A stretch of 39,822 nt of DNA from a virus. Shown here piece by piece: positions 2,596 to 32,559 of this stretch (position 1 is the stretch's first letter; each line of letters begins with the position of its first letter). The notes beneath the pieces are model-generated. The model worked only from the letters and a program-made list of their open reading frames with translations. It did no database searches and was not told the DNA's origin. Position numbers and translations under genes: made by a program. The stretch is from UHGV virus genome UHGV-0171730. The stretch is one strand, 5' to 3'.

Positions 2596-2964
2596 TCAGG
2601 CGGCCTTGATAGTCATATCATCTGAATCAAATATTCCTGATGTATCGATATCGGTAATTCTTATTCCTTCACTACCATCCATTGGAGGCCATCCTTCCTG
2701 ACCATTTCCATCATTCCAGTCGAACTCACACACAACACCATATGCATTTAAGTCGCTTGAAATTGCTATAAGCAGAGCATGTTGCGCCAGCATGATTAAT
2801 ACAGCATTTAATACAGAGCCGTGTTTATTGAGTCGGTATTCAGAGTCTGACCAGAAATTATTAATCTGGTGAAGTTTTTCCTCTGTCATTACGTCATGGT
2901 CAATTTCAATTTCTATTGATGCTTTCCAGTCGTAATCAATGATGTATTTTTTGATGTTTGACAT
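2596..2964 (-). CDS. Ea10-like protein (122 aa)
   Basis: Size and position between cIII and ral match lambda ea10; acidic C-terminus. Confidence 0.5.
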   Translation of the reverse strand: MSNIKKYIIDYDWKASIEIEIDHDVMTEEKLHQINNFWSDSEYRLNKHGSVLNAVLIMLAQHALLIAISSDLNAYGVVCEFDWNDGNGQEGWPPMDGSEGIRITDIDTSGIFDSDDMTIKAA

Positions 2965-2982
2965 CTATTCATATCCTCATAG

Positions 2983-3010
2983 ATAAAAAATCGCCCTCAC
3001 ACTGGAGGGC
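2983..3010 (-). terminator. rho-independent terminator in pL operon (tL-like)
   Basis: Hairpin GCCCTC-ACACTG-GAGGGC at 2993-3010 followed on the minus strand by a T-run (plus-strand A-run 2985-2990). Confidence 0.4.
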
Positions 3011-3146
3011 AAAGAAGATTTCCAATAATCAGAACAAGTCGGCTCCTGTTTAGTTACGAGCGACATTGCTCCGTGTATTCACTCGTTGGAATGAATACAC
3101 AGTGCAGTGTTTATTCTGTTATTTATGCCAAAAATAAAGGCCACTA

Positions 3147-3347
3147 TCAGGCAGCTTTGTTGTTCTGTTTACCAAGTTCTCTGGCAATCATTGCCGTCGT
3201 TCGTATTGCCCATTTATCGACATATTTCCCATCTTCCATTACAGGAAACATTTCTTCAGGCTTAACCATGCATTCCGATTGCAGCTTGCATCCATTGCAT
3301 CGTTTGAATTGTCCACACCATTGATTTGTATCAATAGTCGTAGTCAT
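3147..3347 (-). CDS. ral: Ral-like restriction-alleviation protein (66 aa)
   Basis: 66-aa ORF with CxxC pair (CGQFKRCNGC) at lambda ral position between ea10 and N. Confidence 0.55.
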   Translation of the reverse strand: MTTTIDTNQWCGQFKRCNGCKLQSECMVKPEEMFPVMEDGKYVDKWAIRTTAMIARELGKQNNKAA

Positions 3348-3417
3348 ACGGATAGTCCTGGTATTGTTCCATCACATCTTGAGGATGCTCTTCGAACTCT
3401 TCAAATTCTTCTTCCAT
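3331..3417 (-). CDS. small acidic ORF (28 aa), orf28-like
   Basis: Hand translation MEEEFEEFEEHPQDVMEQYQDYPYDYDY; overlaps ral start by 17 nt; low complexity. Confidence 0.25.
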   Translation of the reverse strand: MEEEFEEFEEHPQDVMEQYQDYPYDYDY

Positions 3418-3560
3418 ATATCACCTTAAATAGTGGATTGCGGTAGTAAAGATTGTGCCTGTCTTTTAACCACATCAGGCTCGGTGGTTCTCGTGTACCC
3501 CTACAACGAGAAATCGGATAAACTCTATTCACCCCTACAGAGAGCAAAAGAGAAACGCCG

Positions 3561-4142
3561 ATGAACAACTCATGGTGGCAGGAACTAATGCATTTTTTCC
3601 TGCAAGGAATGACACTTAAACAGTTGATTCATATGCTAATCATCCTGATCATATTGATTATTGTTATGCCGGTAAGCGTAAAAGAATGGATAAACCTGCA
3701 TAATCCAGAAATCCTTCCTCATTACTGGATGTATTACATCCTGTTGTTTTGCGTTAGCTATGTGCTTAACGGCGTTGTTAATTCCGCTTATCACGCTGTG
3801 ACTGAAAGAATTGAGGTATTCGCTGCTCAGAAGCGCAAATCTAAAGAAGAAAAATATGTGCAAGATTTGTTTGATTCGTTAACTCTTGGAGAAAGAGCGT
3901 ATTTGGCATTCGCTGTAGCCGCTAATAACCAGCTACAAACGGAAAAGGGCGCTCATGAATCAATTTCATTGCTCAAAAAAGGACTCCTCGTTCGAAGGCC
4001 TCCTGCTGTTGGATATCCTGATACCGACCGTTTCGTTATCCCTGAAAGCTATAGACATGAGTGCTACATTAGGTTTGCCGGGAAGGCAGACAGCCTTATG
4101 GATGAACTTATCGCTCAGGATAAGCATGGCAAAAACAAGTAA
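3561..4142 (+). CDS. sieB: superinfection exclusion protein B-like membrane protein (193 aa)
   Basis: Two strongly hydrophobic segments (LIHMLIILIILIIVMPV; YILLFCVSYVLNGVV); size and location next to N match lambda/P22 sieB. Confidence 0.6.
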   Translation: MNNSWWQELMHFFLQGMTLKQLIHMLIILIILIIVMPVSVKEWINLHNPEILPHYWMYYILLFCVSYVLNGVVNSAYHAVTERIEVFAAQKRKSKEEKYVQDLFDSLTLGERAYLAFAVAANNQLQTEKGAHESISLLKKGLLVRRPPAVGYPDTDRFVIPESYRHECYIRFAGKADSLMDELIAQDKHGKNK

Positions 4143-4158
4143 TTAGCAAATGAATTTA

Positions 4159-4431
4159 TCATCTCGCCGTCAGTTGTTTTGATTTCCGGTAGCCTGCCGC
4201 GTAAAGAGCTACGTTCGGAAGACAAGTTGAACCTTCATATTTTCTGGTCAACGTTGTCAGAGTTATCACTTCTGCTCTCATTGCTGGTTTGAGCTTGCAT
4301 TGCAAGACCACTCGTGAAGGGGTTGGCCTGTGTAGCTTGTCGGAGCTGATCGCCTCCTGACTTTGCAGATTTGCGCGACGAGCTCTACGGCGAGAAGCTG
4401 CGGTGCCTTTAAATTCTGTTTTTCTGGACAT
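4159..4431 (-). CDS. N: N-type transcription antiterminator (90 aa)
   Basis: Arg-rich motif TAASRRRARRANLQ near N-terminus; C-terminus LPNVALYAAGYRKSKQLTAR resembles P22 gp24; ATG 4431 preceded by GGGAGG at 5 nt; ORF-track start 4503 rejected. Confidence 0.8.
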   Translation of the reverse strand: MSRKTEFKGTAASRRRARRANLQSQEAISSDKLHRPTPSRVVLQCKLKPAMRAEVITLTTLTRKYEGSTCLPNVALYAAGYRKSKQLTAR

Positions 4432-4529
4432 GGATTCCTCCCGAATAAACTTTGGCGATGCAATCTCGAAGCTCCTCCTGAGACGGTTGCTTCGGCATTG
4501 CATCCCACAGCTTATGTGGTTGGGTGATC

Positions 4530-28367: not shown

Positions 28368-30490
28368 TGAAAGTAACTGCAAACGGTAAGACATTTACCT
28401 TCCCTGATGGTACGAGCACCGAAGATATTGGCACCGCCATTGATGAGTATTTTGCTGGTCAGGCTGTTCAGCAACAAACAGTTAATCAGGCCAATAATGC
28501 ACCAACACAGGAAGAACCATCATTGATGCAACAAGCTGGCGATTGGCTCACTGGTGGTCAAAGTGCAGGGCAAATTGCAGAACAGGCTGGTCGTGGTCTG
28601 GTAAACATACCATTTGACGTATTACAGGGTGGCGCAAGTCTGATTAATGCAATCAGTCAGGGGCTTGGTGGGCCAAAAGTATTGGATGATGTCTATCGTC
28701 CAGTCGATCGACCGACAGACCATTACGCGCAAGCCGGTGAAACAATTGGCGGGTATCTCCTGCCAATTGGTACAGCGGCAAAAGCTGCTGGAGCGCCAGC
28801 AAAGCTCGCTGGAGATATCGGTTCCGCAGGAAACATGATTGCAGGCTCTCTTGCTGATGCTGCAAATCAGGAGGGCGATTTTGCACAAAATGCTGCCATT
28901 AACGGTGGTATCAATATTGGTGCTCAAGGCGTTATTTCAGGTGCCGGGCGCGTTATTGCGCCAAGGGTTTCACAGGCTCTTGGTGGTGCAGCACTGAATT
29001 CTGCTAATGATGTTTCCAGGATGGCAAAGTCAGATGCTGGGCGTCAGTCAATTGCCAGTCAGGCCGCTAATGTGTCCGAAGATGTAGCAAAAGCAGCTGA
29101 GTCTGCTGGAATTGATATAAACGCATTAACACCAGGAATGCGATCTGGAAGTCGTGGAATTGCACAAGCCGAAGGCGCATTGGCATCAACACCTGGAATT
29201 GTTCAGGACGCCCATCAGGCAGCATTTAACGAAATATCATCAAAGTTAAGTCGAAACCTTGATGAATTTGGGGCCACATCTGGAACGGCATCAGAAAAAA
29301 GTGCGGCTATAAAACAAAGGATTCTTCAAAATCTTGATCAGATGAAGGATGCCGAGCGCGCGGCATGGGATGACGTGCGGTCAACAATGCCAAATCAAAA
29401 AGCAAGAATGCTAAATGGTAATGCCGTTATTCAGGCAGAGCGATCTGCTGGCATACCGCTTACTCCTGAAATGAAACAGTTTGTTCAGGCAAACAATCAA
29501 GGTGGAGTAACATTTGATGGCATGAAAGCATGGAGAGCGAAATTTGCTGATGCGGAGCAAAAATATAAGCGTAGCGGAGAGGCAAATGCGGCAAGGAGAG
29601 CAGGGGAAATACGCCGGGCAATTACTGATGATATGCGCACAATGGCGGAAAACGGCGGATTTCTTGATGACTGGCAGAAAGCTAATGATCTGTCTAAAGC
29701 GAGGTTATCAGCACAAGAGAGTGCAGAGTCTGTTTTCGGGCGTGATTTGGCAACAGATGCACTGATTACGAATGGAGTAAAATCCCTTCAATCATCGTCA
29801 GCTAAAGGTCTTAATGGTCCTGCTGGATTCCATTCTATGATCCGCGCGCTGCCAGAATCAGAGCGTGTTCCTGCTATATCATCAATGTTGCAAGATGCTA
29901 TCTCGCATGGTGTACGTGGTGGCAAAGCTGATGCAGCAGGAATTAACCATATCGCAGAGATACTGACTCCACAAAATGTAAAAGCCATTAGCCGATATTC
30001 CTCAGAGCTTGGAAGAATTGCTGATGCATATGGCACTCTTGCAAGAGCAGCAGTGAAACCTCAGCAGTATATTGAAAGAACAGGTAGAACTGCCAATGTA
30101 CTACGCGATCTGGATGCTGGTTTATCCAACGTCACATCAACAGTGTTAAATGCAATTGCCAATTCAACATCAGGTGCCATTGTTGGTGGCGCTGGAGGAG
30201 GCATTGCAGGCGCTGCCGCAGGTGCTTTAGTTGGCGCTGGGTTAAAAGGCGCTGTATCTAAAATTGCCACCACACGTAGTGGTCGGTATGCGATAGAGAA
30301 AGCAGTTCAGGAAGCAACTAAAGCAGTAAGAGCAGGCGGAAGCAAAGAAGCATTAGCGGCGGCGGAACGCAGATTTATGGCAAATAAGGCCGCCGTAAAA
30401 GCAATACGCGAGGCACTAGGAAACGAAGAGTTCCAGCGTTTAGCAAGGGCTGGAATTGTGGCATCGCTAAGCGGAATGGCACAGGAGTAA
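28364..30490 (+). CDS. ejection protein (P22 gp16-like, 708 aa)
   Basis: Size and synteny; Ala/Gly-rich; ATGA overlap. Confidence 0.5.
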
Positions 30491-30895
30491 TTAGTCATCC
30501 ATGGATGGATTGAGCTTATCTCGTGTTGATGTGGCAATTTTCCCAACATTTTTCAACCAAGATTTTAAGAAGGATATGTCGTCCTTAATATCATGAATAT
30601 CCTCATTCTTTATACGATCAACCTTATCCTCTAAGCTCTCTATAGAACGCTCAATGCTAGACAGAGAGATTTTTAAGTCCCCTTGCTCACGTTCCAGTGA
30701 GGATTTGAGAGCACAATATTCGTTTTCTAGAATTCCTATTTTTTTTGTTAGAGAGTGCATTCGATACTCATACACCAAACCAGAAACGACTAATGCAGCC
30801 AACAGAAACCATTCAAGCACACCAACCTCCTTAGTTTTGCGCAGGATACCAGATGATAATGTGTAGTTGGAGTAGCGCGGTTGTAATGCAAGCAT
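30491..30895 (-). CDS. hypothetical membrane-anchored coiled-coil protein (134 aa)
   Basis: One hydrophobic segment WFLLAALVVSGLV then heptad-like repeats; AT-rich; weak RBS. Confidence 0.4.
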   Translation of the reverse strand: MLALQPRYSNYTLSSGILRKTKEVGVLEWFLLAALVVSGLVYEYRMHSLTKKIGILENEYCALKSSLEREQGDLKISLSSIERSIESLEDKVDRIKNEDIHDIKDDISFLKSWLKNVGKIATSTRDKLNPSMDD

Positions 30896-30979
30896 TTTGT
30901 TTTGGTTTTATGCTTGCTTGTATGTGTGTACAGTGCATATAATGCAAGCATACATCACAACAAAGGTGCTTGCATTATG
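30885..30979. promoter_or_regulatory. divergent control region with four alternating 11-bp sites and a sigma70-like promoter
   Basis: AATGCAAGCAT at 30885-30895 and 30941-30951; reverse orientation ATGCTTGCTTG at 30910-30920 and TGCTTGCATT at 30967-30976; TTGCTT (30914-30919), 18-bp spacer, TATAAT (30938-30943). Confidence 0.4.
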
Positions 30980-31969
30980 ACTGAAAAGAAAAGTGGCGAA
31001 GGGAAAGCTAAGGGCGGTATCGCTCGCGCAAAGTCGCTGACTAAAGAGCAGCGTTCTGAAATAGCAAAGAAAGCAGCGGCTGCAAGATGGAAGGATAAAC
31101 CATTAATTGCTACGCATAAGGGATCGTTCCAGCATGAATTCGGGATTGATGTTGAGTGCTATGTGTTAAATGATGATAACAAAACTGCCGTTATTAGCCA
31201 GAGAGGCATGGGAGAAGCGATTGGTCTTGGCGAAGGTGGCAGCAGGTTGCCAAAGTTTATTCAGGGGAAAACTATTTCTCAGTATATCGGGCATGAATTA
31301 AGGGCAAAACTTGAAAATCCTCTTATTTTTCAATACAAACAGGCGGGCACGAACACTCCAGCTAATCCTGTAATACATGGCTACGATGTAACAATATTAA
31401 TTGATTTATGTCGAGCAATCTCTAATGCTAAAGCTGAAGGTAAGTTGCTTTCCAGTCAGGAAGGGATTGCTAAGCAAGCCAGAATCATTATTGATGCATC
31501 AGCCAAGGCGGGCATTCAGGGGCTTGTTTATGCTTTGGCAGGGTATGACAGAACAAAAGAAGAGGTAATTCAAGCATATAAGCGATATGTTGCTGAAGAG
31601 GCTCGTGAGTATGAAAGAGAGTTCACCCCTGAACTTTATGAGCATTGGTATCGTCTGTATGGTATAGACAAACCAGTTAGAGGGCGACCATGGGCGTTTA
31701 AATATCTTACGATAGATCACATTTATTACCCATTAGCCAGAAGTGAAGGAAAGGTATTTAATTTAGCAAAAACGTCAAAAGAAGAAAAAGGCAGCAAGAA
31801 CGATAAAATACACCAGTTTTTATCAGAGGTTGGAGTTAAGGCTCTTAGAACCCAAATAGGTAAGGTTACTGGTATTGCAATGGTTTCTGATACTCGAGAA
31901 GAGTATGAGAAATACATAGATGAAAAGGTTATTGGACAAAGAACCATAGACTTAAAAGATAAAGAATAA
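30977..31969 (+). CDS. hypothetical protein (330 aa) with basic N-terminal region
   Basis: ATG 30977 downstream of consensus-like promoter; strong terminator after stop; N-terminal KAKGGIARAKSLTKEQRSEIAKKAAAARW; ORF-track start 30902 rejected. Confidence 0.5.
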   Translation: MTEKKSGEGKAKGGIARAKSLTKEQRSEIAKKAAAARWKDKPLIATHKGSFQHEFGIDVECYVLNDDNKTAVISQRGMGEAIGLGEGGSRLPKFIQGKTISQYIGHELRAKLENPLIFQYKQAGTNTPANPVIHGYDVTILIDLCRAISNAKAEGKLLSSQEGIAKQARIIIDASAKAGIQGLVYALAGYDRTKEEVIQAYKRYVAEEAREYEREFTPELYEHWYRLYGIDKPVRGRPWAFKYLTIDHIYYPLARSEGKVFNLAKTSKEEKGSKNDKIHQFLSEVGVKALRTQIGKVTGIAMVSDTREEYEKYIDEKVIGQRTIDLKDKE

Positions 31970-31998
31970 GAAAAACCCACCGTCAGGTGGGTTTTTTA
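31970..31998. terminator. bidirectional rho-independent terminator
   Basis: Hairpin ACCCACC-GTCA-GGTGGGT at 31975-31992 flanked by A5 upstream and T6 downstream. Confidence 0.6.
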
Positions 31999-32022
31999 TA
32001 AGGAGTAATCATGATTTACCCA

Positions 32023-32559
32023 TCAAACAACCCACCAGTTTGCCTGATTGGATACCAGCCTTGCAGTTTTTATGGAATTAATTATGCCATGCTCAAGAGC
32101 CTTGTTAGCATCCAAAATGGTCGAGTCTGCTATCAGGGATGCCCACCTAATATGGGTTCCGATGTCGATATTGAACGTCTCAACGAAGCGATCAAGATCG
32201 TTATCGAGGCATTTCCCGTACTCTCTCAATCTGGCATGGTCGGCGGCTGGGGAGGCAAAGCACCATAATAGAGGATGTAACAGGAATCTTGATAATGGGT
32301 TTGCGAAACGTTCTGAGCCAGCCAGGAAAACGATATTAGCTATGGATTCAACATTGCTTATGTTGTGAGTTCTAACGGTAACAGGGAGTGACTTAAGAAA
32401 GTTATACGCAGTAAAGCCAGCGGCTGTTTCCCCTCCCTGACTTGATATATGGATATTTAATTCAGTTGCGCCTTGAGATAATGCGGTGAGACAGTGGTTC
32501 TGAAGTTGCCCAACAGTGGCAGTGTTAACGGGGCATAAGAAATGAATTGTGTGCAGCAT
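32023..32559 (-). CDS. ClpP-like serine protease-fold protein (178 aa)
   Basis: ISSQGGETAAGFTAYNFL resembles ClpP INSPGGVITAGMSIYD; AGSERFANPLSRFLLHP resembles [20 protein letters not shown]; start overlaps mnt stop. Confidence 0.55.
   Translation of the reverse strand: MLHTIHFLCPVNTATVGQLQNHCLTALSQGATELNIHISSQGGETAAGFTAYNFLKSLPVTVRTHNISNVESIANIVFLAGSERFANPLSRFLLHPLLWCFASPAADHARLREYGKCLDNDLDRFVETFNIDIGTHIRWASLIADSTILDANKALEHGIINSIKTARLVSNQANWWVV

Follow-up and report, generated by a model that had tools for sequence, protein, structure and literature searches.

A promoter-embedded array of four near-palindromic sites accompanies a P63C gene cassette in a P22-like prophage and in homologous loci across phyla

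The four repeated sites upstream of the 330-aa plus-strand gene are embedded in the promoter of a self-contained P63C gene cassette and form its control array. In the window, the whole 39,822-nt stretch of viral DNA analysed here, this cassette is a moron lying between the sieA-slot gene hkcB and a backbone terminator of a P22-like prophage, while in many phyla the same module is found as the internal control region of an IS1-family transposon with three genes. The anatomy of the array is conserved, with the −35 element in S2, the −10 element abutting S3, and S4 filling the spacer between the Shine-Dalgarno sequence and the ATG. The comparison covers 80 homologous genome loci from many phyla and 57 IMG/VR contigs with exact arrays.

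Architecture of the four-site array

The repeat unit is a 10-bp near-palindrome of the form ATGC-WW-GCAT (aTGCAAGCAt), present in two exact copies and two copies with one mismatch, spaced 24, 32 and 24 bp from centre to centre and confined to a segment of ~88–90 bp (Table 1). The first-pass annotation had described four 11-bp repeats and had named recurrence at similar frequency elsewhere in the prophage as a point that would speak against its reading. The repeats are indeed present, as two exact 11-mers (AATGCAAGCAT, 30885–30895 and 30941–30951), one reverse complement with one mismatch (30966–30976) and the S2 copy with two mismatches, and the window holds no further copies. Their alternating orientation reflects the central AA/TT difference only. 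The number of exact 8-mers in the window is not unusual (3 seen versus 2.9 expected); the clustering of the sites within 88 bp is (p about 1e-5 by simulation).

The near-consensus promoter proposed for this interval stands with respect to its −10 hexamer, which is perfect, but the −35 matches the consensus at only 3/6 positions, the spacer is 18 nt, and a consensus scanner makes no call. Across the family, S2 carries a −35 of the form TTGCAn, the −35/−10 spacer measures 17–18 nt in 44 of the 53 loci with a full array, and a TAnaAT element recurs at an S3-specific offset, matching at 4/6 positions or more in 39/53 loci versus 16/53 at the same offset from S1. From the −10, transcription is predicted to start near 30950, at the 3′ edge of S3. 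The sites had also been said to overlap both flanking start codons; S4 ends one base before the ATG in this copy, and S1 lies clear of the hkcB start codon, as described below.

Table 1. Features of the P63C cassette and its surroundings (window coordinates)
Feature	Position	Strand	Description
hkcB, 109 aa	30491..30820	−	N-terminal hydrophobic anchor and coiled coil; neighbour outside the unit; sieA-slot gene
Leader, RBS and −10-like hexamer	30821..30858	−	Leader and RBS TGGTATCCTGCnCAAAACTAAGGAGGTTGGT, TATCAT hexamer (30858–30853); conserved; backbone, not cassette
S1	30886..30895	+	ATGCAAGCAT, exact
S2	30910..30919	−	ATGCTTGCTT, core TGCTTGCT, one mismatch; holds −35 TTGCTT (30914–30919) of the P63C promoter
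−10 hexamer of P63C promoter	30938..30943	+	TATAAT; last two bases are the first two of S3
S3	30942..30951	+	ATGCAAGCAT, exact
S4	30966..30975	−	GTGCTTGCAT, one mismatch to the 10-mer, 8-mer core exact; occupies the spacer from the Shine-Dalgarno (AAAGGTG, 30962–30968) to ATG 30977
P63C-domain protein gene, 330 aa	30977..31969	+	PF10546, phrog_2384, PGAP name
Basic two-helix N-terminal motif, codons 13–38	31013..31090	+	GGIARAKSLTKEQRSEIAKKAAAARW; conserved, co-occurs with the site array
Bidirectional stem-loop terminator	31971..31996	.	Backbone element, right edge of cassette

Conservation across genomes and viruses

All four sites, with no more than one mismatch each, are found in 53 of the 80 genome loci, spanning Proteobacteria, Acidobacteriota, Firmicutes, Myxococcota and other phyla. 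In these loci the array keeps the order TGCAAGCA/TGCTTGCA/TGCAAGCA/TGCTTGCA in +,−,+,− orientation at about −88, −63, −33 and −7 from the ATG, and the core TGCAAGCA is essentially invariant, the outer TGC/GCA bases being conserved as strongly as TTGCA. Exact 8-mers in these loci fall within 100 nt before the ATG in 179 of 191 cases. In the reverse search of IMG/VR, a P63C homolog abuts the exact array in 57/57 contigs, and 11 of these homologs are only 26–35% identical, retaining the N-terminal motif and the sites. Among complete E. coli genomes, 67 of 5426 carry this control region. Neither array nor cassette is described in Rfam, Pfam or the searched literature, and the literature on ISMhu11, IS1 passenger genes, hkcB/hkcC and the site sequence yielded no functional description.

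The cassette as a moron

The cassette extends from ~30859/30880 to 31971 and comprises, in this prophage, the sites and the P63C gene only. The proposal of an independently regulated insert at the locus where P22 carries sieA is supported, with the P63C gene and its sites present or absent among otherwise near-identical prophages; the same slot lacks the cassette in HK620 and in the AR_0017, B1_2 and STEC346 prophages. Conversely, in E. coli M15 the cassette adjoins an unrelated 140-aa minus-strand gene and a different gene 16. The bidirectional terminator said to end the plus-strand gene is present as a stem-loop, but it belongs to the backbone and is common to phages without the cassette. 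The unit combines the components of a moron: a promoter inferred from the family-wide −35/−10 geometry, a terminator and a presence/absence polymorphism. P22-like phages possess an 'ant moron' region (PMC2629481), and in HK620 the late terminator is annotated downstream of gene 9. In P2-like and Mu-like prophages related cassettes follow terminators, and in ST104 the position is downstream of cI. Additionally, a 29-codon hydrophobic ORF (30853–30942) crosses S1–S2, its RBS serving hkcC in HK620; it was considered as a small toxin and rejected, its upstream part not being conserved beyond the E. coli copies.

The neighbouring gene hkcB

The minus-strand neighbour had been called as a 134-aa protein from ATG 30895, separated from the plus-strand gene by 95 bp. 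The annotations of the HK620 authors and PGAP place its start instead at GTG 30820, behind AAGGAGG, yielding 109 residues; a 109-position PHROG profile covers only residues 26–134 of the longer call, and the HK620 sequence diverges 31 nt upstream of this GTG. The intergenic interval is therefore 156 bp, and S1 is clear of the hkcB start codon. The description of the product as a membrane-anchored coiled-coil protein agrees with its N-terminal hydrophobic anchor and coiled coil.

hkcB directly follows gene 16, opposite to it and on the same strand as sieA, behind an identical leader of ~35 nt and RBS; the leader, RBS and TATCAT hexamer are common to sieA, hkcB and the M15 gene. By position and leader it occupies the sieA slot. 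Homology to SieA is rejected on sequence with respect to P22 SieA, the one SieA type compared, with which BLASTP yields no alignment; two further types exist besides that of P22 (PMC10883804). Matches of hkcB to PADLOC-DB models are confined to insignificant coiled-coil hits.

The P63C protein and its N-terminal motif

The 330-aa ORF is present as annotated. Its product matches PF10546 over residues 202–289 (35.9 bits against a gathering cut-off of 26.1) and phrog_2384, where the function is given as unknown, over its full length (E 4.5e-103); PGAP names it 'P63C domain-containing protein', and 2766 homologs are found at E ≤ 1e-5. The basic N-terminus noted previously corresponds to a conserved basic two-helix motif with the consensus GGxARAxxL(S/T)xExRxEIAxKAAxARW. 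This motif is not covered by any Pfam or NCBIfam model and does not correspond to a recognised DNA-binding fold; it is weakly LEA_5/KGG-like and appears in hundreds of small proteins, often in tandem.

The motif and the array tend to occur together. Homologs lacking the motif (n = 6) also lack the sites, two N-terminal variants carry other inverted repeats instead, and Gordonia phage Petra has the motif without the canonical array; the motif codons begin ~36 nt past S4, and this physical linkage confounds the motif–site correlation. A recombination breakpoint between P63C alleles falls just past the motif, at 31092. In 611R6-type alleles the control region and first 39 codons share 99% nucleotide identity, and the remainder of the protein is ~50% identical.

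Foldseek comparison against viral models returns, among the top 50, Mx8 p63 and many Bro-N, antirepressor and 'repressor domain' proteins, with weak E-values, while Pfam Bro-N and KilA-N models find no match in the protein. None of the defence-system models of PADLOC-DB matches P63C, and the searched literature offers no function for any P63C protein or for PF10546. Exclusion or defence, regulation, and a role as a transposition accessory factor are among the candidate functions.

Transposon-borne relatives

In 40 of the 80 genome loci the array has a divergent IS1-like transposase gene on one side and the P63C gene on the other, and half of the chromosomal loci have the module inside an IS1-family transposon of 2.5–2.8 kb with GGTAGTG ends and 8-bp target duplications. 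The transposon carries a divergent transposase gene, the P63C gene and a small convergent gene sharing the P63C N-terminal motif. Four loci (L027, L060, L072 and L035) display perfect 8-bp duplications around elements of 2.5–2.76 kb. In transposon-borne relatives the bottom strand of S1 (TTGCAT) provides the −35 of the divergent transposase promoter. The prophage copy differs: tblastn finds no transposase homolog in the window, the surroundings of the cassette there contain neither the small motif gene nor GGTAGTG ends, and the copy thus shows neither a DDE transposase nor terminal inverted repeats with a target duplication. Arrays INDEPENDENCE from transposase: the full array is present in 25 of 40 loci with a transposase, in 27 of 40 without one, and without one in 55 of 57 viral contigs, the intact transposase-free arrays spreading over more than 40 sequence clusters.

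Proposed mechanism and alternative readings

The best explanation, to which we assign roughly an even chance, is that the array controls the P63C cassette through autorepression combined with masking of the start codon in read-through transcripts. A cassette-encoded protein would bind the aTGCAAGCAt palindromes as a dimer and repress its own promoter, thereby giving host-independent, self-limiting expression. The best candidate for this binder is P63C itself, acting through its basic two-helix N-terminal motif, its Bro-N-like central domain, or both. As a secondary effect, a transcript arriving from outside, such as the late transcript of the phage, which passes from gene 16 in the direction of gene 9, would fold S3 onto S4 because all four sites are mutually complementary; in this copy one long S1:S4/S2:S3 hairpin may form. 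Such a hairpin would hide the Shine-Dalgarno sequence and the ATG, restricting translation to transcripts from the cassette's own promoter.

Several observations bear on the two components. Protein recognition is suggested by the sites themselves, each of which is a palindrome whose sequence is invariant beyond what complementarity demands, in flanks without covariation. Indirect support for an operator array comes from this invariance, the co-occurrence with the N-terminal motif, and the placement over the −35, −10 and leader. On the RNA side, the predicted read-through RNA (30880–31010) folds at −50.8 kcal/mol (z −6.0), against −4.8 kcal/mol (z +1.4) for an unstructured own-promoter leader. 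Moreover, the strict +,−,+,− orientation, the play of 22–25 bp in S1–S2 and S3–S4 spacing across loci, and the fixed overlap of S4 with the ATG region fit a role at the RNA level at least as well as they fit an operator. No Rfam covariance model reaches its gathering score; the sub-threshold, miRNA-precursor-like matches obtained at a permissive E-value arise from the long inverted repeat.

An RNA-only insulator acting by fold-back, in which the sites are merely complementary arms and no dedicated protein binds them, is an unlikely alternative. S3:S4 pairing in outside transcripts, whether from phage late read-through or from transcription into a transposon, would occlude the Shine-Dalgarno–ATG segment, and own-promoter transcripts, starting past S3, would be translated. 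The exact position of S4 at a fixed offset, the predicted start at the edge of S3, the loop-like variation in spacing, the large folding gap and the location of the cassette in the path of late transcription all agree with this reading, as do two compensated site pairs (L057 S3:S4 and L071 S1:S2) and a slight, non-significant enrichment of doubly changed S1/S2 pairs in IMG/VR at cluster level (Fisher p = 0.08). Yet a stem would be expected to covary, and the 8-mer is invariant across phyla. The cores hardly vary, and most variant sites (~20) lack compensation, among them an S4 G-to-A change that recurs in 5 loci. Covariation of the S1/S2 and S3/S4 flanks does not exceed that of cross-locus shuffles, and spacer complementarity is weak or marginal (p = 0.03). 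Furthermore, a hairpin needs no internal dyad in each site, and the ATG could be masked without S1 and S2.

A function belonging to the transposon is less probable still. Here the IS1-family transposase or the small motif protein would bind the array, as operator of the transposase promoter or as an internal enhancer, and the phage cassette would hold a relic. The location of the array between transposase and P63C genes, the contribution of S1 to the transposase promoter, the bona fide ends and duplications bounding the three-gene unit, and the presence of the motif in the small convergent gene favour such a role; against it, arrays are equally intact where the transposase is missing, the element's ends are unlike the sites, and neither a transposase gene nor a small motif gene nor IS ends occur near the cassette in the window.

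It is very improbable that RNA polymerase alone explains the array, the sites being −35-like elements (TTGCAt) of overlapping divergent promoters read by the housekeeping sigma factor. S1 and S2 do coincide with −35 positions, a weak nAnAAT lies on the S2 bottom strand, and a universal host factor would account for the cross-phylum spread, but −35 hexamers are never so invariant, S4 has no plausible −10 partner, and the palindrome, with its equally conserved outer bases, reaches past the −35. Least credible is the model of the first-pass annotation, a shared region co-regulating hkcB and the 330-aa gene as one unit, which draws on their adjacent, divergent arrangement and on S1 lying ~35 bp upstream of the hkcB −10-like hexamer and is largely refuted by the comparative data: hkcB starts at 30820, the two genes occur independently (HK620 and many E. 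coli prophages have hkcB but no cassette), and the array follows P63C whatever flanks it, in every context examined (80 loci, 57 viral contigs).

Significance

We consider it possible, with rather less than even confidence, that the aTGCAAGCAt array and the N-terminal motif constitute a previously unrecognised cross-phylum protein–nucleic acid recognition pair, forming the regulatory core of the three-gene IS1-family transposon and of P63C morons. If so, P63C proteins would represent a new class of self-regulating mobile-element effectors, serving for instance in exclusion, in defence or in the modulation of transposition. Temperate phages, satellites and chromosomes commonly carry P63C-domain proteins, and the array offers a first concrete, testable handle on the family: an invariant 8-bp site repeated four times at fixed positions, a defined promoter anatomy, a candidate recognition motif and a three-gene transposon with clean ends. 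The reading of the prophage region is likewise corrected: hkcB occupies the sieA slot and follows a conserved leader, and the P63C unit is a moron in its own right. Several deposited genes probably have misplaced starts, among them hkcB of phage 611R6, called there at 134 aa, and orf23 of ST104, annotated to start inside S3.

Comparison with known systems

Like the lambda/P22 OR region and the Arc/Mnt operators, the array places several short palindromes over the −35, the −10/+1 and the leader of the adjacent gene. It differs in that no repressor fold is identified, the spacing shows no phase-locking, the non-palindromic centre keeps a fixed orientation, and the sites are identical from one phylum to the next instead of being specific to a phage. 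In fold-back inhibition of transposase translation in IS10 and IS50, native transcripts lack the 5′ arm, and read-through transcripts pair that arm with the ribosome-binding region. The array shares the promoter placement that, with the predicted start, would leave native transcripts without a 5′ arm, whereas the gene protected here would be an accessory gene rather than the transposase, and the arms are sequence-invariant and present in four copies.

The transposon-borne relatives resemble IS1-family insertion sequences and transporter IS carrying passenger genes: their transposase is a single ORF of HTH+DDE type, in some copies with an InsA-type zinc ribbon, their inverted ends are of the GGTnnTG type, and their target duplications measure 8 bp. 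They differ in forming a three-gene element of 2.5–2.8 kb in which both extra genes are conserved partners. In the prophage copy, transposase, small gene and ends are all missing, either through loss or because they were never there. Compared with morons, the promoter–gene–terminator inserts defined for HK97/HK022, the cassette is likewise an autonomous transcription unit, present or absent between near-identical prophages and located in the stretch from gene 16 to gene 9 that is already known to vary; its cross-phylum four-site array, the identical module in a transposon and the backbone-owned terminator set it apart.

hkcB resembles P22 SieA in position, strand, leader and RBS, small size and N-terminal hydrophobic segment, but shows no detectable sequence similarity to it and has one predicted anchor together with a coiled coil. 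Finally, P63C, whose domain takes its name from p63 of the Myxococcus phage Mx8, is linked to the Bro-N/KilA-N proteins of phages and large DNA viruses by viral-model fold matches dominated by Bro-N, antirepressor and 'repressor domain' proteins, and is distinguished from them by the weakness of those E-values and by having no Pfam match to either domain.

A four-site control array upstream of the P63C gene

Four repeat sites (S1–S4) form an array in the control region of the plus-strand P63C gene, and together with this gene they make up a cassette. The repeats reported in the first-pass annotation are real: the 11-mer AATGCAAGCAT is present in two exact copies, its reverse complement recurs with one mismatch, and a more degenerate copy, ATGCTTGCTT, lies between the exact ones. 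The true unit, however, is a 10-bp near-palindrome, ATGC-WW-GCAT, and the "alternating orientation" ascribed to the sites resides only in a central AA or TT. The site centres lie 24, 32 and 24 bp apart, and the interval as a whole forms an imperfect dyad whose 34-nt arms show 76% complementarity. The window contains three 8-mer cores versus 2.9 expected by chance; the clustering of all three within 88 bp has p ~1e-5. A near-consensus promoter had also been proposed, of which the TATAAT is perfect, but the -35 TTGCTT matches at 3/6 positions with an 18-nt spacer and is not called by a consensus scanner.

Additionally, a 29-codon ORF encoding a cysteine-rich hydrophobic peptide, MIMCSWSSAVVMQAFCFGFMLACMCVQCI, follows an AGGA used in HK620 as the RBS of hkcC, runs across S1 and S2 and stops inside the -10. 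As a gene it is probably fortuitous, its upstream part being conserved in E. coli copies only.

Positions of features in the window and in related loci (L-numbered handles denote fetched genome or phage loci)
Feature	Sequence	Position	Strand	Remark
hkcB	window	30491–30820	-	GTG start at 30820
Shared leader and RBS, TGGTATCCTGCnCAAAACTAAGGAGGTTGGTGTG	window	30821–30858
Shared leader and RBS	P22 (L146)	~2832–2870
Shared leader and RBS	E. coli M15 (L004)	~4008–4045
29-codon ORF	window	30853–30942	+
S1	window	30886–30895		exact 11-mer, 30885–30895
S2	window	30910–30919		degenerate copy
TATAAT	window	30938–30943
S3	window	30942–30951		exact 11-mer, 30941–30951
S4	window	30966–30975		reverse complement, one mismatch, 30966–30976
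P63C gene	window	30977–31969	+	330 aa
Terminator	window	31971–31996
85-aa ORF	window	32011–32268	+
Clp-protease-like gene	window	32023–32559	-
Genes 20 and 16 (ejection proteins)	window	upstream of cassette region
Clp-protease-like gene, mnt/arc/ant, endosialidase-type tailspike	window	downstream of cassette region
hkcB, annotated form	phage 611R6 (L001)	4092–4496
orf23, annotated form	ST104 (L087)	2917–3996
Panacea-domain gene	E. coli B1_2 (L005)	2790–3239
Panacea-domain gene	E. coli STEC346 (L148)	3296–4163		slot cargo: Panacea-domain gene, then 139-aa hypothetical
IS1A insertion	E. coli 2017.18.04CC (L147)	~3021–3800		at about S2
Small convergent gene	L027	4015–4561
Small convergent gene	L031	3973–4519
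Small convergent gene	L060	3009–3534
Small convergent gene	L072	3982–4306

Conservation of the array and promoter anatomy

Comparison across loci shows deep conservation of the array and its association with P63C. Among 80 fetched genome loci of P63C relatives, inspected upstream of each start codon, 53 contain the complete set of four, none of them with more than one mismatch, in the order TGCAAGCA, TGCTTGCA, TGCAAGCA, TGCTTGCA and with start-to-start spacings of 22–25, 30–33 and 22–25 bp. The consensus site of these 53 arrays is aTGCAAGCAt; within the core of eight, six positions are invariant in 51–53 of the 53 copies and the first T is kept in 48–50. S4 usually starts 7 nt 5' of the ATG, so that TGCTTGCATG includes the start codon, and 179 of the 191 exact cores in the fetched loci lie within 100 nt 5' of the ATG. 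In the reverse test, a scan of IMG/VR for the exact S1–S2–S3 pattern, 57 contigs carry the pattern and a P63C homolog abuts the array in all 57. Eleven of these homologs are merely 26–35% identical to the query and retain the four sites together with an N-terminal motif, which in distant homologs reads GGxARAxxL(S/T)PExRxEIAxKAAxARW. A distant copy in ST104-type Salmonella P22-like phages, orf23, lies directly 3' of cI and its terminator, and the Enterobacter and Morganella copies stand behind terminators in P2-like and Mu-like prophages. The ST104 orf23 is annotated from an ATG inside S3; the motif-bearing protein begins just past S4, and the annotated start is probably wrong.

Across the family, TTGCAn lies within S2, and the hexamer whose last base is the first T of S3 matches TAnaAT at 4/6 or more positions in 39/53 loci, compared with only 16/53 at the same offset from S1. 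The -35/-10 spacer measures 17 nt in 26 loci and 18 nt in 18, and this arrangement places the predicted transcription start at the 3' edge of S3. The SD is located in the S3–S4 spacer, and S4 fills the gap between SD and ATG.

The P63C protein

The 330-aa product contains a P63C domain (PF10546, 35.9 bits against a cut-off of 26.1) and matches phrog_2384, a family without known function, over its full length. Homologs number 2766, and proteins of Burkholderia, Ralstonia, Azotobacter, Acidobacteriota, Firmicutes and Myxococcota are 53–70% identical over the full length. The AlphaFold2 model (pLDDT 70.7) comprises N-terminal helices at residues 10–20 and 23–38, a mixed alpha/beta domain at residues 43–137 and a helical C-terminal half. 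A search of solved structures returned no match for the protein; among predicted viral structures the best match is Mx8 p63, followed by Bro-N, antirepressor and "repressor domain" proteins; E-values are weak throughout. PADLOC likewise gave no match, and the searched literature holds nothing on P63C function.

The sieA slot and the cassette boundaries

An E. coli prophage of the P22-like (Lederbergvirus) type makes up the window; its nearest complete match is E. coli MS 21-1 (99.6% identity across 30400–32100). The region as a whole is termed the "ant moron", in which hkcB is listed with unknown function (Villafane et al., PMC2629481). hkcB occupies the same place and strand as P22 sieA. The first-pass annotation gave the minus-strand gene 134 aa, but the HK620 authors and PGAP assign it 330 nt (109 aa) from a GTG located five bases past AAGGAGG. 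A 109-position PHROG profile covers residues 26–134 of the long ORF, and HK620 similarity ends at 30851, so the 25 extra codons cannot be conserved. With this start, the supposed 95-bp interval between the two genes becomes 156 bp, and S1 is clear of the hkcB start, so that the sites do not overlap both start codons as claimed.

P22 sieA and hkcB have an identical ~35-nt leader with its RBS in common with a 140-aa gene of E. coli M15 that is unrelated to them, and comparison of the three proteins reveals no mutual similarity, which makes hkcB an occupant of a backbone "slot". Judged by these alignments, the leader marks a conserved slot for expression, where unrelated small proteins are swapped exactly at the start codon. 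The hkcB of phage 611R6 is annotated in a 134-aa form reading through S1, probably from a mis-annotated start.

Prophages with other slot cargo are identical to the window up to 30858 and loosely similar to ~30879, and on the right side cassette-free phages share sequence from 31972 on, including the terminator, whose presence bears out the earlier prediction. In E. coli M15, both the slot gene and the gene 16 beside the same sites and P63C gene differ from those of the window. These breakpoints and the M15 context delimit a unit from ~30859/30880 to 31971, consisting of a ~100-bp control region and the ORF. The original observation is thus partly confirmed: an independent insert at the sieA locus holds, but the divergent gene pair fails as a unit, since the cassette accompanies a different slot gene in M15 and the array is tied to P63C. 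Other occupants of this slot include hkcC (HK620, AR_0017) and, in B1_2 and STEC346, a Panacea-domain gene accompanied by a partner. The latter looks like a toxin-antitoxin-type pair, which suggests a hotspot for accessory or defence-like genes at this slot.

Over 30400–31092 the window is 99% identical to phage 611R6 and to many E. coli prophages, beyond which the sequences diverge; the 611R6-type P63C protein is identical in its first 39 residues, with 54% identity overall and ~50% over the remainder. The control region and N-terminus occur in 67 of 5426 complete E. coli genomes, and the exact allele in only two or three. A true IS1A is inserted into the control region in E. coli 2017.18.04CC, and an IS5-family element interrupts the P63C gene in E. 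coli GPEC1405 (H19). Downstream, an 85-aa ORF with a full-length phrog_7758 match is antisense to the Clp-protease-like gene (PF00574, phrog_94), the sole PGAP call there, so the family phrog_7758 may rest on antisense ORFs called in error. The first base of the protease-gene ATG is the last base of the mnt-like stop (32559), and both genes therefore look co-transcribed.

A three-gene IS1-family transposon carrying the array

As a control array of the P63C cassette, the four sites are conserved and previously undescribed, and phage morons share them with a three-gene IS1-family transposon; Rfam, Pfam, NCBIfam, PHROGs and the searchable literature yielded no description of array, motif or three-gene element. 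In 40 of the 80 genome loci, the divergent left-hand gene encodes an IS1-family transposase, a single ORF of about 275–320 aa with an HTH and a DDE domain and, in some copies, an InsA zinc ribbon; Pfam DDE_Tnp_IS1 scores just over cut-off and NCBIfam transpos_IS1 under it (E 6e-17). The opposite strand of S1 forms the -35 of the transposase promoter (TTGCAT, 16–17 nt, then TATAAT or CATAAT). Nucleotide similarity between loci spans about -1000 to +1100/+1290 from the P63C ATG. Terminal inverted repeats beginning GGTAGTG are present in five loci, four of them (L027, L060, L072 and L035) flanked by perfect 8-bp target duplications, which together indicate an element length of 2.5–2.76 kb.

A small gene convergent with P63C (67–78 aa in elements with defined ends) sits between the stop of P63C and the right end; it was found in 27 of the 80 loci (within L007–L086), mostly transposase-bearing ones. 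The C-terminus of its product carries the P63C N-terminal motif, GGKARAxxLxxxxRxxIAxKAAxxRW (shared stretch E 2.8e-4). This motif is a portable module, sometimes in tandem, and occurs in 326 representative proteins, mostly of 50–130 aa; neither Pfam nor NCBIfam has a model for it, and its LEA_5 similarity is weak. In the window itself, a transposase gene and a small motif gene are both absent, as are IS ends in the vicinity of the cassette.

In several loci the ATG lies ~7 nt past the transposase -10, so the transcript would be leaderless or nearly so, as predicted for L082, L084, L027, L020 and L044. Moreover, L010, L022, L023, L026 and L036 contain a ~30-nt duplication with a half-site-like ATGCTTGAGCGG, 40–110 nt left of S1 and between the transposase -10 and ATG; Alphaproteobacterial copies have an extra palindrome, ATGCTTAGCGTCAAGCAT, between these two elements.

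Candidate readers of the sites

The invariance of the sequence and the internal palindrome of each site suggest recognition by a protein travelling with the sites, and P63C is the candidate because it is the only gene that always accompanies them. The six homologs lacking the N-terminal motif also lack the sites. In two variants, one with an acidobacterial N-terminus and one of "KIGG" type, the inverted repeats are different ones, TATACTTGCYCGRG and ATGCTTGACA. This motif–site correlation is weakened by physical linkage, the motif codons beginning ~36 nt past S4, and by Gordonia phage Petra, in which the motif is present and the canonical array absent.

RNA pairing alone would predict covariation, for which the evidence is weak: two compensated pairs are present, doubly changed S1/S2 pairs are enriched in IMG/VR at only p = 0.08 after clustering, and spacer complementarity is marginal (p = 0.03), whereas the flanks lack covariation and variant cores, in 20 of 53 loci, are nearly all uncompensated, including a recurrent S4 G-to-A change. 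A host factor acting across so many phyla could only be RNA polymerase, which accounts for the TTGCA of S1 and S2 but leaves S3, S4 and the invariant outer bases unexplained. The transposase is an unlikely reader, as full arrays occur in 25/40 loci with it versus 27/40 without, 55 of the 57 viral arrays lack it, and the IS ends are unrelated in sequence to the sites.

Proposed RNA-level component

Beside the putative recognition by P63C, an RNA role fits the fixed +,-,+,- orientation, the loose S1–S2 and S3–S4 spacing and the position of S4 on the start codon. The leader from the cassette's own promoter (30950–31010) is unstructured (-4.8 kcal/mol, z +1.4), and the four-site RNA (30880–31010) is predicted to fold into a single extended hairpin (-50.8 kcal/mol, z -6.0), in which S1 pairs with S4 and S2 with S3 and the SD and ATG are buried. 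Located between genes 16 and 9, the cassette is on the sense strand, and the HK620 authors placed the late terminator past gene 9; late read-through transcripts should therefore carry the whole array. Fold-back insulation would be a second, non-exclusive function of the array, and the mechanism proposed from sequence, autorepression combined with fold-back insulation, has about an even chance of being correct. Fold-back inhibition is known for IS10, which the putative insulator role of the array resembles.
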